This document shows positions 7,999 to 21,433 of a stretch of 23,883 bases of DNA, one piece after another; positions within the stretch are counted from its first letter, which is position 1; each line of letters begins with the position of its first letter. Both the position numbers and the translations under genes were made by a program. The stretch comes from a virus. Its lineage: Duplodnaviria; Heunggongvirae; Uroviricota; Caudoviricetes. The stretch lies in IMG/VR virus record IMGVR_UViG_2563366840_000003. One strand, 5' to 3'. The notes under the pieces were generated by a model. That model did no database searches, was not told where the DNA came from, and saw only the letters and a program-made list of their open reading frames with translations.

Positions 7999-8787
7999 AT
8001 GCTGGAAAAAGACTACCAGTTATCCGCATATAAAAAATTGGCCGCCGCCGGTGGGATGAAAACACCTGGTGCCATAACATCGGCACGAAACAGTGCTAAC
8101 ACAGCAAAACTGCTTGCAGAAGAATTGACCGGATTAATTCTGGATACAATTGTCTATCCCGACACTATTACCAGCTATGTTTCAACGATCAGAACAACCG
8201 CAACCGGTTTAACGAATATTGGAGGGCTGGCAACTCAGCACGCGGACCTGTTGGCTGGTTATGCTGATCTGTCAATGCTCCTTCAACTCGATATTGGTTG
8301 GGATGTTTACTGTCGTGCTAATGAGCGAGAAGTTTCAGAACTGCCGATCTCTATTGCCATTGGTGACGCGACTACAACGAAATCGCTTGAGGACGCTGTA
8401 AATGCGCTTAATACGTCGAGTTTAGTCGCTGCTATGGAGGACATTAACCAGACCCTTAACACAGGCTCAGGAAGCTCGTCAGGCTCTGATTCAGGTGGCG
8501 GCGCAGTCACTCCCCCACCAGCACTGACAGAACAACAAGTTGAAGCACTGAAGGAAGCTACTGAACAATTTGGTGCTTTTTTCGACCAGACAACAGTACC
8601 GGTAGCAGCATTGCAACAGCAGTATGAACGAGCGAAGGAAAGCGCCAGCGTAGCCATAACTGCTTATAACCATGCTATCGGTACCGCGCTTGCGGAAGCA
8701 TCAGCAAATAAGGCCAGCACAGCCAGCGCAGTTGCCGCTTTGGTTCCTGATTCTGTTCTTGATGAATTAAACAAAGCGGCACAGTAA
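7999..8787 (+). CDS. hypothetical Ala-rich helical protein with an internal Gly/Ser linker
   Basis: AGGAG 5 nt upstream of the ATG at 7999 (ORF track starts further upstream at 7942); 262 aa with GSGSSSGSDSGGG linker; no motif I can assign. Confidence 0.5.
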   Translation: MLEKDYQLSAYKKLAAAGGMKTPGAITSARNSANTAKLLAEELTGLILDTIVYPDTITSYVSTIRTTATGLTNIGGLATQHADLLAGYADLSMLLQLDIGWDVYCRANEREVSELPISIAIGDATTTKSLEDAVNALNTSSLVAAMEDINQTLNTGSGSSSGSDSGGGAVTPPPALTEQQVEALKEATEQFGAFFDQTTVPVAALQQQYERAKESASVAITAYNHAIGTALAEASANKASTASAVAALVPDSVLDELNKAAQ

Positions 8788-8826
8788 CAAAGGACTTCAT
8801 TGATAATTTTTCTTCAGGAGGAAGAC

Positions 8827-9249
8827 ATGTCATTCTTTTCTACGTTAAAAACAGCTTTGTCTTTGAAGGAGAAACTTGCTGCTACTGGTGTTCTTGTTCT
8901 GATTTGCGCACTTGTTGGTGCTGGGTTTGCATGGGAACGTCATCAGCTAAAGCAAGCCATAGAGAAAATTGGCAGTCTTGATCAGGCTGTTAAGGAGCGT
9001 GATAAGTCAATAATGGATCTTAACCAGACCATTGAGACGATGAACAAAGCAGAGCAACATTTTCACAGCCAGGAAGTGAAAAATGAATCAGAACAAGCCA
9101 AGTATGCTGACAGGCAAATGGAACGAAAAGCTGAAGTTCAGAAACAACTGGTTGCGGCGGGTAATGTTCGCCAGCGTATTCCTGCTGACACTCAGCGGTT
9201 GCTCCGGGAGTCGATCAGCGAATTTAACGCCGACGCCGACAAAGGTTAA
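8827..9249 (+). CDS. type II membrane protein with periplasmic coiled coil, i-spanin-like (Rz-like)
   Basis: AGGAGGAAGAC then ATG at 8827; N-terminal TM helix (ATGVLVLICALVGAGFAW) followed by a charged, heptad-rich domain of ~110 aa; the next gene starts inside it in another frame. Confidence 0.45.
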   Translation: MSFFSTLKTALSLKEKLAATGVLVLICALVGAGFAWERHQLKQAIEKIGSLDQAVKERDKSIMDLNQTIETMNKAEQHFHSQEVKNESEQAKYADRQMERKAEVQKQLVAAGNVRQRIPADTQRLLRESISEFNADADKG

Positions 9250-9415
9250 CCACCCTGCCCCCAAAAGTGCATTTATGTGCAGGATGCCAGAGTTTAGCAG
9301 TGAATATTTTGATGATCTGCCAGCGTATATCCTCGATACAGAAACGATGCTGATGGGGATTAACAGGAAGAATCGCAACGTTAATGATTACAACCGAGCT
9401 ATTAGCGGTAACTAA
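9164..9415 (+). CDS. small lipoprotein, o-spanin-like (Rz1-like); start overlaps the preceding gene
   Basis: From the ATG at 9164: MFASVFLLTLSGC has the lipobox L-S-G-C; the mature ~70-aa part is Pro/Thr-rich (TPTPTKVNHPAP) with a further Cys. The ORF-track version begins at 9083. Confidence 0.45.
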   Translation: MFASVFLLTLSGCSGSRSANLTPTPTKVNHPAPKSAFMCRMPEFSSEYFDDLPAYILDTETMLMGINRKNRNVNDYNRAISGN

Positions 9416-9426
9416 AAGGGATTTTT

Positions 9427-9819
9427 ATGTCTGATAAAGTAACAGTAAAGCAAACTATCAACAAAGCGACTTCAATCTACAAAATTGAGCAAATCACTGT
9501 TGGCAAGCCAGGATCTGAACAATACCGTCGTGCTTTCGAGCTTGCCGATCAGCTTGGTTTAAAACACCCGGATTGCATTGAGCATGTATTTCCGACCTAT
9601 GCTGATGAGCAATGTACTCATGTTCTTACCGAAGAGGATTTTTTCAGCACTGAAGAACGAGAAGGCGTTGATCGCTGCATTGGTGTGATTTGTTCTTCGG
9701 TAAGTGATGAGTTATTCCCTAATGTGCCTGAATATGGTGGTATTGGATACCAATTCCTGTACGAGGGCGATGAGCTTAAATGCTATGAACATGGTCTTCT
9801 CATCGAAAGCGTAGAATAA
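9427..9819 (+). CDS. hypothetical protein (130 aa)
   Basis: Clean ORF with GGGA-rich RBS region, followed by an intrinsic terminator; no recognisable motif. Confidence 0.5.
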   Translation: MSDKVTVKQTINKATSIYKIEQITVGKPGSEQYRRAFELADQLGLKHPDCIEHVFPTYADEQCTHVLTEEDFFSTEEREGVDRCIGVICSSVSDELFPNVPEYGGIGYQFLYEGDELKCYEHGLLIESVE

Positions 9820-9833
9820 TACGACTCCCTTCC

Positions 9834-9857
9834 AACCGGCTACGTTGGCCGGTTTTT
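9834..9857 (+). terminator. intrinsic terminator
   Basis: AACCGGC-TACGTT-GGCCGGTT hairpin followed by TTTTT, directly after the stop at 9819. Confidence 0.6.
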
Positions 9858-9860
9858 CAC

Positions 9861-10081
9861 TTATCCACATTATCCACTGGATAGATCCAATAATCAGGTC
9901 CATACAGATCCCAATTAGATCCATATAGATCCCTGATCGTTGCAGGCCGCGCCACGTCTGGCTTAGAAGTGTATCGCGATGTGTGCTGGAGGGAAAACGA
10001 TGTGTGCTGGAGGGATAAAAATGTGTGCTGACGGGTTGCTAATGTGTGCTGGCGGGATATAGGATGTGTGCTGACGGGAAA
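9861..10081. promoter_or_regulatory. plasmid origin oriR: two tandem DnaA boxes, five-GATC cluster, five incC iterons
   Basis: TTATCCACA at 9861-9869 and TTATCCACT at 9870-9878; GATC at 9884, 9907, 9918, 9928 and 9935 (five in 55 bp); five direct repeats of (G/A)ATGTGTGCTG(G/A)(A/C)GGGA starting at 9978, 9999, 10020, 10041 and 10063 at 21-22 bp spacing; another DnaA-like box at 10121-10130 just upstream of repA. Confidence 0.8.
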
Positions 10082-10137
10082 GCCTGGGTAGTTATCACCA
10101 CTTATAAAAACTATCCACACAATTCGGAAAAAGTAAT

Positions 10138-19757: not shown

Positions 19758-20603
19758 TCACCCTCTGAATCCCGCCGGTATACCCCATTGTTCGTTATCT
19801 TTATTTTTGGCTAAAACCGCATTAAGAGCTTCGTTTACCATCATGCAATGCGGCAGATTATCGAAGTTTGATACCCCGCCAATATCAGGAGAACGCTTGT
19901 TCTTCAGGTAAGCATATTTCCGCGCTGCCGCCTCTACTTTCTGCTTGAACTCATGTTTTTGAGCGCGTTTTTTGGATAACCGCAGATTGTCAGCCTTTGC
20001 TTTTGCCTCAGCGATCCATGAAGTCAATTTTTTGAGTCTGCTCGTTCCGGCACCGCCGGAAACTGATCTTTTTGTTTTTTTAACTTGTGACTTCTTATTC
20101 TTTATTGCCACGTCATCCTGACAGGGGGAGGGGGTATCATTTTGACATGGGGGTGTGGATAAAAAATTAAATAAAGCCAATGTCTTAGCGAGAACAGCTT
20201 TAACCTTGGTTGCCGCTGAAGAGATCTTTAATTTGCTTTCAATCAGCGCATTTTTGGCTTGTTGTGCGAAGGCCAAAAAGGATGGTGTAAACCGGTACAG
20301 GTTAGCGCGACGTTCACGGTGATCGCCGATAACAATCTCTACAGACAGGATTCCTTTGTTTACAGCTTCACGGAATGCACGAACGACGGTTGATTGGCTA
20401 TAACCAGTTTCTGCCGCGATCAGGCGGTGAGGCTTGTGAATGAAGTATTCACTGGTTGTTGCCGCTAGATTTGCACATTGCGACAGGATATGCCCGGCGC
20501 TACGGGATAGACCGGAGTGTGTTACAAAGCAGGCCAATTCATAGCCAGAAAAAGTAAAATCGCTCATCGTTATACAGCTCAGGAAAGTGACTTTAGCCAG
20601 CAT
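19758..20603 (-). CDS. repL: RepL-type replication protein (P1 lytic replicon)
   Basis: 281-aa ORF immediately downstream of the kilA-like gene on the same strand with no intergenic RBS-rich spacer; recognised as P1 RepL-like from memory. The start could instead be the in-frame ATG 12 codons downstream. Confidence 0.6.
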   Translation of the reverse strand: MLAKVTFLSCITMSDFTFSGYELACFVTHSGLSRSAGHILSQCANLAATTSEYFIHKPHRLIAAETGYSQSTVVRAFREAVNKGILSVEIVIGDHRERRANLYRFTPSFLAFAQQAKNALIESKLKISSAATKVKAVLAKTLALFNFLSTPPCQNDTPSPCQDDVAIKNKKSQVKKTKRSVSGGAGTSRLKKLTSWIAEAKAKADNLRLSKKRAQKHEFKQKVEAAARKYAYLKNKRSPDIGGVSNFDNLPHCMMVNEALNAVLAKNKDNEQWGIPAGFRG

Positions 20604-20632
20604 TACAATGCTGGTGGTTCTTACTACGTCTG

Positions 20633-21433
20633 TTAGCGCGTTGCCGCGACAGGTACCAGCACACCAGCATCAAGCAATCGCTTCATCAGCCACTGCTGAC
20701 CTTTGCCGGTTATACGAGTCGTGAAAGAAATCCTGCTTCCATTGCTTGTATCGATCACGGTTTCTTTAAGGGTGAAATACCCACGGGATATGTATTCTTG
20801 TTTGGGGACGTTCCTGCGTTCACCGGTTGCGATCAGAATTCCGTTATCACGCAACCAGGTGAAGAGATAGTTTTGGCCCAGACCGAGCACTTTGGCATAG
20901 TTGCCGATTAGAACCCCGCTGGCGGTAGCAACGCGTTCGGCGAATTCGACTTTAGGTGCATCCATAAGCATTTTTTGCTCCAGCCGTTGCTTTTGCTCTG
21001 CCAGGTCGGCAGCCAAACGGAGAGCTTCAGGGAGACTCTGCGGAATAGCAGGTTGTAATCTTCCGGCTCGATAGTCGATAAATGTCTGGTTTACCTTCAG
21101 CCGAAACGCGGGAGAAATCCAGCCTGCGTACTCCACAGCGAGCAATTCATGGGCAAAAGTGCCGCCGCCACGGCCTTCGAACGAAACTATGCAATTCTGC
21201 ATAGTTTCTTTTTCAAGCTCTTCGATGAGCTGTTTGGCTGACAGCGTTCTTAGCCATTGAGCTGGCGCTTTATGGGCACCGAGTCCGCTCGCTCTGTGTA
21301 GAGCATTAAGGTTGTAACGGCCAGCGCGGTCGGTCGTAATTTCAACACCACAAATAACAGGCAGAGTGGTTGAAGGATCGACATTTTGATGAAGGTTTGA
21401 TATATTCATATCCGCATTGAATGTTTGTTGCAT
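20633..21433 (-). CDS. kilA: KilA-N domain protein with antirepressor-type C-terminal domain
   Basis: 266 aa; its C-terminal ~130 aa (IPQSLPEALRLAADLAEQK...ITGKGQQWLMKRLLDAGVL) are clearly paralogous to the C-terminus of the upstream 347-aa gene; preceded by a C1-type operator. Confidence 0.65.
   Translation of the reverse strand: MQQTFNADMNISNLHQNVDPSTTLPVICGVEITTDRAGRYNLNALHRASGLGAHKAPAQWLRTLSAKQLIEELEKETMQNCIVSFEGRGGGTFAHELLAVEYAGWISPAFRLKVNQTFIDYRAGRLQPAIPQSLPEALRLAADLAEQKQRLEQKMLMDAPKVEFAERVATASGVLIGNYAKVLGLGQNYLFTWLRDNGILIATGERRNVPKQEYISRGYFTLKETVIDTSNGSRISFTTRITGKGQQWLMKRLLDAGVLVPVAATR

Follow-up and report, generated by a model that had tools for sequence, protein, structure and literature searches.

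Overlapping ppfA and mlp genes with the architecture of a two-component spanin in a P1-like phage-plasmid

The ppfA-mlp locus and its surroundings

The window, the whole 23,883-nucleotide stretch of viral DNA that was analysed (IMG/VR record IMGVR_UViG_2563366840_000003), carries two overlapping genes, ppfA and mlp, which share 167 nt, with mlp lying in the +1 frame and continuing for 166 nt beyond the ppfA stop codon (Table 1). A sequence-only reading had described them as a type II membrane protein with a periplasmic coiled coil, overlapped in another frame by a lipoprotein gene, in the arrangement of an i-spanin/o-spanin pair. Each of these elements was recovered, and the pair is catalogued as such in SpaninDB, RefSeq and PMC9025707.

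Over the 1.1 kb around the pair, DNA identity amounts to 99.8% with Escherichia phage P1 (NC_005856, 63069-64169, reverse strand) and 99.5% with P7, and since the two phages cover 80-86% of the whole window at about 98% identity, the window is a P1-like (Punavirus) phage-plasmid. The PpfA and Mlp translations are identical to the SpaninDB sequences of P1 gp064 and gp063. In the P1 record ppfA is P1_gp064, with a "possible periplasmic function", and mlp is P1_gp063, originally named "membrane lipoprotein precursor" and presently carrying the RefSeq product "Rz-like spanin"; other P1-like records label the pair Rz/Rz1. As the P1 spanin, therefore, ppfA/mlp is already known: Summer et al. 2007 recognised it by its predicted features (as related in PMC9025707), and it was catalogued in 2018 and is annotated in RefSeq. 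In SpaninDB (Kongari 2018, supplement), P1 is entered under class "ovl", with both proteins in family "P1", the i-spanin gp064 having 140 aa, 104 of them periplasmic, and no periplasmic Cys, and the o-spanin gp063 having 110 aa, 71 of them mature, and one periplasmic Cys. Bednarek et al. 2022 (PMC9025707), where the i- and o- labels are swapped, described the two genes as partially overlapping and their operon as not linked to the remaining lysis genes of P1. What is added here is the boundary of the dual-coding region, support for a long Mlp signal peptide and the observation that no late promoter can be recognised.

Table 1. Features of the ppfA-mlp region and selected neighbours, in window coordinates (res, residues of the protein; diversity is given for ppfA codon positions in order)
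Feature	Position	Strand	Basis or remark
Shine-Dalgarno AGGAGG of ppfA	8816..8821	+	5 nt before ATG 8827; same SD in SpaninDB for P1 gp064
ppfA, putative i-spanin, 140 aa	8827..9249	+	ORF, hydropathy, AF2, heptads, phrog_89, P1 gp064 identity
PpfA cytoplasmic N-terminus	res 1-16	+	predicted
PpfA TM helix	res 17-36, nt 8875-8934	+	hydropathy
PpfA periplasmic helix alpha1	res 37-110	+	AF2
PpfA linker	res 111-119	+	AF2
PpfA helix alpha2	res 120-138	+	AF2
Shine-Dalgarno AGGAAG of mlp	9071..9076	+	6 nt before ATG 9083; inside ppfA codons Q-E-V
mlp, putative o-spanin precursor, 110 aa as annotated	9083..9415	+	+1 frame relative to ppfA; alternative starts TTG 9152, ATG 9164
Mlp lipobox L-S-G-C	9191-9202; Cys40 codon 9200-9202	+	read from ORF
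Mature Mlp, 71 aa	from Cys40	+	signal peptide res 1-39
Mlp Cys66 codon (mature residue 27)	9278..9280	+	only periplasmic Cys of the pair; candidate for o-spanin homodimer disulfide
Dual-constraint stretch	9152..9249	+	frame 0: PpfA linker, alpha2, C-terminus; +1: Mlp h-region, lipobox, 17 mature residues
Diversity 0.17/0.13/0.40	8827-9082		ppfA frame only
Diversity 0.13/0.09/0.35	9083-9151		ppfA frame only
Diversity 0.10/0.05/0.13	9152-9249		both frames constrained
Diversity 0.39/0.12/0.11	9250-9412		mlp frame only
upfC, PAAR-like spike tip	7706-7990	+	PAAR matches; in string directly upstream, co-oriented with ppfA
upfB, tail-tip tripod	annotated 7942-8787, probable start 7999	+	immediately precedes ppfA, same orientation
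upfA	9427-9819	+	ORF; phrog_1453, unknown function
Terminator-like hairpin and T-run	9834-9854	+	terminator scan; would end co-oriented string before oriR/repA
tRNA genes Met, Thr, Asn	1760-1835, 3267-3342, 3345-3420	-	

The TM segment is the sole strongly hydrophobic stretch of PpfA (Kyte-Doolittle 19-residue mean 2.35) and is kept as a single N-terminal segment across 18 homologues. It is preceded by a K-rich flank (K8, K14 and K16), which favours a predicted type II, N-in/C-out topology, and is followed by a charged sequence rich in Glu, Lys and Gln. The protein has a single Cys, C27, which lies inside the TM segment, and none in the periplasmic part. AlphaFold2 modelling from an 18-sequence alignment (pLDDT 69) yielded a helix over residues 13-110, the disordered linker and a second helix, so that the predicted fold appears to match the helix-linker-helix layout described for i-spanins (Kongari 2018). 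Residues 46-73 show a 28-residue heptad pattern that only 29 of 2000 shuffled sequences matched (p ~0.015).

In Mlp the residue following the lipobox Cys, at position +2, is Ser in every lineage aligned and never the Asp that would speak against outer-membrane sorting. SpaninDB gives the LipoP cleavage for Mlp (gp063) at 39|40 and flags it "Too long signal sequence" (Kongari 2018). The mature part had been called Pro-rich; it does contain six Pro among 71 residues (8%), four of them within the first 21, and the enrichment is modest. A Cys capable of forming the o-spanin disulfide, for which a search had been recommended, is present as Cys66 and is invariant across the ten aligned lineages. The structure model of Mlp is of low confidence (pLDDT 56), with a predicted C-terminal helix. 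In many records mlp was overlooked by gene callers or shortened to fragments of 46-65 aa.

The genes directly upstream encode tail-tip proteins whose virion roles have been described (PMC12810830, PMC9024508), and the synteny upfC-upfB-ppfA is kept in all relatives examined. The annotated upfB (7942, 281 aa) overlaps upfC by 49 nt; in the PHROG profile and in all relatives (258-260 aa, starting just after upfC) the gene begins at Met20, at 7999, and RefSeq has probably placed the start 19 codons too early. On the other side, the interval between mlp and repA (window 9416-10137; loci L002-L006 and L088-L093) varies among P1-like elements, being occupied in P1 by upfA and in relatives by a Gp49-family gene (PF13876), by an upfA-like gene of 129 aa, by both or by neither.

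A Lpa-type late-promoter box, for which we used the consensus AAGTGAYTT-N4-TANNNT derived from LP23 and LPlyz, was not found upstream of the upfC..ppfA string (7609-7705 and 8788-8826); a candidate with three mismatches at 7655-7673 was rejected as it lacks the GTGA core. Upstream of upfC or ppfA there are only weak matches to sigma-70 promoters and no strong one, and the P1 annotation near the gene string holds only "predicted" sigma-70 promoters. The C1 operator Odmt (about 7608-7624) lies in the divergent intergenic region upstream of upfC, and the plus-strand upfC..upfA string may be under C1 control.

The earlier reading had seen neither holin nor endolysin nearby, and the ORFs of the whole 23.9-kb window yielded neither, the remaining ones being dmt, hrdC, uhr, a tciA-like gene, tRNAs, rep/par, head and tail genes, anti-repressors, a foreign invertase and a tail-fibre fragment. 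In P1, lyz-lydD-lydE occupy 20013-20882 and ppfA 63520-63942, which places lyz about 42.6 kb away, and lydA/lydB sit in the dar operon (PMC9025707). The suggestion that the lysis functions are dispersed is correct and was already documented. The pair thus lies outside a lysis cassette, which is the usual but not obligatory location of two-component spanin genes, and T4 provides a precedent for functional spanin genes that are unlinked to holin and endolysin (Kongari 2018).

Several features elsewhere in the window were also recorded. The stretch 1-1501 is not P1-like and contains the C-terminal fragment of a tail-fibre gene (281-796, minus strand) and a DNA invertase gene (842-1426, plus strand, phrog_125); its junction with the P1-type tRNA-Met/tciA region lies at about 1501/1502. 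This junction was absent from all phage and plasmid records searched and may represent a rearrangement at an invertase system or an assembly chimera. A 54-aa ORF (1946-2110, minus strand), adjoining a tellurite/colicin-resistance-like gene (2110-2535), looks like a two-TM membrane protein and is annotated DUF3927 in matching plasmids; it is holin-like in size and hydrophobicity and nothing ties it to lysis. The ORF at 3196-3492 (minus strand) is spurious and runs across the genes of the Thr and Asn tRNAs.

Dual coding and the start of mlp

Conservation was followed at two depths: a scan of IMG/VR provided 80 near-identical P1-like loci, and divergent loci were gathered separately, protein by protein, yielding a diversity set of ten collinear loci from Salmonella, Cronobacter, Klebsiella and other P1-like plasmids in which PpfA is about 60% identical. 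In this set the diversity at third positions of ppfA codons falls threefold, from 0.35-0.40 to 0.13, within 9152-9249, and this is the signature of dual coding; further downstream the pattern follows the mlp frame (Table 1). The first 23 codons of the annotated mlp showed no second-frame constraint in the ten loci. Of the 80 near-identical loci, 78-79 carry both ORFs intact (78 for mlp), and a +1 ORF with a lipobox (L-S/N-G/A-C) is kept in 10 of the 10 divergent ones. The Mlp motifs AFMCRMPE, which holds Cys66, and INRKNRNVN, at the C-terminus, are also kept in all ten lineages aligned. An exhaustive profile search revealed two far more distant PpfA relatives (L093 and L096) which retain the overlapped +1 lipoprotein ORF, with the lipoboxes LSAC or LSSC and with the Cys motif as FMCTMP in L093 and SMCTLP in L096.

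The possibility that ppfA alone is real, and that the +1 lipoprotein ORF is a chance open frame, might draw on the frequent failure of gene callers to record mlp in full and on the unconstrained first 23 codons. It is scarcely credible in view of the dual-coding signal, which excludes it, and it is opposed as well by the intact state of mlp in nearly all the near-identical loci and by the invariance of the lipobox, Cys66 and the C-terminal motif where PpfA itself is only about 60% identical, variants of these elements occurring in the two distant relatives. The diversity pattern, the intact ORFs and the retention in distant relatives together show that both genes are real and selected as a pair.

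Public protein collections also contain entries of 193-195 aa in which the start of PpfA is fused to the end of Mlp (P0002, P0031, P0039, P0044, P0046, P0050, P0067 and P0068). A 195-aa PpfA-Mlp fusion produced by programmed frameshifting was rejected, the frame switch occurring at six different positions, and the entries appear to have arisen independently, through single-base indels or assembly errors.

The lipoprotein gene had been read as starting at ATG 9164, and here the earlier reading has to be revised. This ATG is confined to the P1 lineage, where it is GTG in two of the 80 loci, and gives way to a Leu or Phe codon in every divergent relative; moreover, it would yield a signal peptide of 12 residues with no basic n-region, and as a conserved start it was rejected. 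Codon 9152, which would give a canonical 16-aa signal peptide, is TTG in P1, ATG in eight of the ten lineages and AGG in L090, it has no Shine-Dalgarno sequence, and L093 has only the upstream ATG; we retain it as an alternative only. The annotated ATG 9083 is favoured, with moderate confidence, because the upstream Shine-Dalgarno sequence and ATG are conserved in relatives. The Shine-Dalgarno sequence of mlp was found in 79 of the 80 P1-like loci, in the divergent relatives the ATG is displaced by one codon and AGGAGG stands 9 nt upstream of it, and L093 has AGGAAG 6 nt upstream of its sole ATG.

A start at 9083 implies a signal peptide of 39 residues, which is atypically long, and given the conservation of the upstream ATG and Shine-Dalgarno sequence, a long lipoprotein signal peptide (~38-40 aa) seems to be a trait of the P1 spanin family. 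Mature Mlp is identical for all candidate starts. The first ~23 residues (9083-9151) are basic in every lineage, yet carry no amino-acid constraint, and such an unconstrained basic N-extension could delay or tune export.

Family relations and the spanin interpretation

PpfA matches phrog_89 "Rz-like spanin" (E=5e-25), and Mlp matches phrog_30284 (E=6.5e-79) and, as a second "Rz-like spanin" family, phrog_456 (E=2.7e-5); the distant relatives P0102 and P0107 also match PHROG Rz-like spanin families. Neither protein matched the Pfam families Rz (PF03245) and Rz1 (PF06085) at E<=1. The best NCBIfam matches were both below threshold, with 18.2 bits for PpfA against LysB TIGR03495 (cut-off 92.75) and 14.7 bits for Mlp against LysC NF038368 (cut-off 27). 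In hhalign comparisons, the PpfA profile gave no significant match to the periplasmic domain of phage 21 Rz (E=0.33) nor, beyond a short shared motif, to that of Fels-2 LysB, and the Mlp profile matched Fels-2 LysC weakly (E=2.6e-4, probability 42%); a distant common ancestry with the P2 LysB/LysC families is possible. A PpfA profile search of 1.84 billion representative proteins produced 33 matches and, as nearly all of these belong to the same P1-like family, the search revealed no link to other spanin families. Sequence searches of the PDB found no relevant solved structure. PpfA/Mlp thus forms a small separate family, spanin by architecture and outside the Rz and LysB sequence families; it was found in the P1-like phage-plasmids examined, and one distant relative derives from a contig too short to classify.

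The pair exhibits all the sequence-level features by which two-component spanins are recognised (Summer 2007; Kongari 2018), and belongs to the overlapped class: a TM domain with predicted type II topology, a helical periplasmic domain, a lipobox followed by a residue other than Asp at +2, and overlapping genes, an arrangement kept in all relatives examined. At least one periplasmic Cys was present in 507 of 528 spanin systems (Kongari 2018), and in the P1 pair it is supplied by Mlp Cys66, the disulfide itself being putative. We consider that PpfA/Mlp is very probably the two-component spanin of P1-type phages and acts according to the standard spanin model. Its lysis function is proposed by analogy with spanins that have been studied directly, and its topology, complex formation, disulfide, membrane fusion and time of expression are likewise predictions.

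According to this model, PpfA would be the inner-membrane subunit, consisting of a cytoplasmic N-terminus, a single TM helix and, on the periplasmic side, a mostly helical rod of ~104 residues. Mlp would be exported by the Sec pathway, processed by Lgt and Lsp at LSG|C and sorted by the Lol system on account of Ser at +2, so that the mature 71-residue protein would sit at the outer membrane with its anchor in the inner leaflet. If they behave like lambda Rz and Rz1, dimers of PpfA and of Mlp would join via their periplasmic C-terminal parts, threading the murein meshwork, and Cys66 would supply the disulfide of the Mlp homodimer; a single disulfide sufficed for lambda spanin function (Kongari 2018). 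Peptidoglycan would cage the complexes until the LydA/LydC/LydD holins triggered the SAR endolysin Lyz and this enzyme degraded the murein. Once freed, the complexes would collapse, and the ensuing fusion of the inner with the outer membrane would complete lysis.

A non-lytic role in the envelope, with the spanin-like architecture being a resemblance only, is in our view unlikely. In one version, the plasmid prophage would express the pair as a lipoprotein system for lysogenic conversion or exclusion, comparable to lambda Bor, and in another it would act together with the neighbouring tail-tip proteins UpfC/UpfB during entry. Such roles are suggested by the position of the genes, which adjoin oriR/repA, directly downstream of the tail-tip genes and distant from all lysis genes, and by the promoter annotation, with predicted sigma-70 promoters alone and no Lpa box; against the first of these points, the T4 spanin genes are likewise unlinked to holin and endolysin (Kongari 2018). 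They also gain from a genome-wide CRISPRi screen, in which knock-down produced no plating defect, with EOP values of 1.3/1.2 for ppfA and 0.24/0.19 for mlp and both genes scored as non-essential for plating; lambda Rz was scored essential in the same study. However, spanins are dispensable in shaken laboratory cultures (PMC9025707), and a mild knock-down phenotype is therefore expected. A non-lytic role would, in addition, leave as coincidence that every architectural feature of a spanin is present, including the overlap and the conserved o-spanin Cys, and that both proteins match several independent PHROG spanin families; nor do SpaninDB and PMC9025707 record any other spanin candidate for P1. 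That the pair is not, or not only, a lysis spanin and forms an envelope bridge serving, for example, prophage-expressed exclusion or tethering seems to us very unlikely; if it were true, P1 would breach the outer membrane by other means. The lysis system of P1, a model phage, is unusually dispersed and redundant, and the role of its spanin is still an inferred one.

Comparison with known spanins

The PpfA/Mlp pair of P1 has the same sequences and the same gene order, upfC-upfB-ppfA-mlp-upfA-oriR-repA, with no difference within the pair; the window differs from P1 in its first 1.5 kb, which is foreign. Lambda Rz/Rz1 resembles it in combining a type II inner-membrane protein, carrying two periplasmic helices and a linker, with a lipoprotein of the outer membrane whose gene uses the +1 frame of the same DNA, and Rz1, like Mlp, carries a Cys suited to a homodimer disulfide. 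The lambda system differs in that Rz1 is wholly embedded in Rz, whereas mlp only overlaps ppfA and extends past its stop codon, and in that Rz has two periplasmic Cys and PpfA none (Kongari 2018). No sequence similarity was detected between the two pairs (Pfam; hhalign against phage 21 Rz). The mature Rz1 of phage 21 has 41 aa (SpaninDB), in contrast to the 71 aa with 8% Pro of mature Mlp, and lambda Rz1 is devoid of helical structure (Kongari 2018), whereas a C-terminal helix is predicted, with low confidence, for Mlp. Moreover, the lambda spanin genes lie within the lysis cassette and those of P1 outside it.

P2 LysB/LysC and their Fels-2 homologues are overlapped like ppfA/mlp. The P2 spanin genes belong to the P2 lysis cassette. 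A C-terminal i-spanin motif is common to Fels-2 LysB (PLPADIIRL) and PpfA (RIPADTQRL), whereas Fels-2 LysC has four periplasmic Cys and Mlp only one.

T4 PseT.3/PseT.2 resembles the P1 pair in the location of the spanin genes away from holin and endolysin, in an i-spanin with no periplasmic Cys, and in an o-spanin that is longer than that of lambda and has a predicted C-terminal helix (Kongari 2018). The function of the T4 proteins was demonstrated by complementation of lambda RzamRz1am (Kongari 2018), whereas that of the P1 pair is inferred; the two systems differ, further, in that the T4 genes do not overlap and that PseT.2 has two Cys (Kongari 2018).
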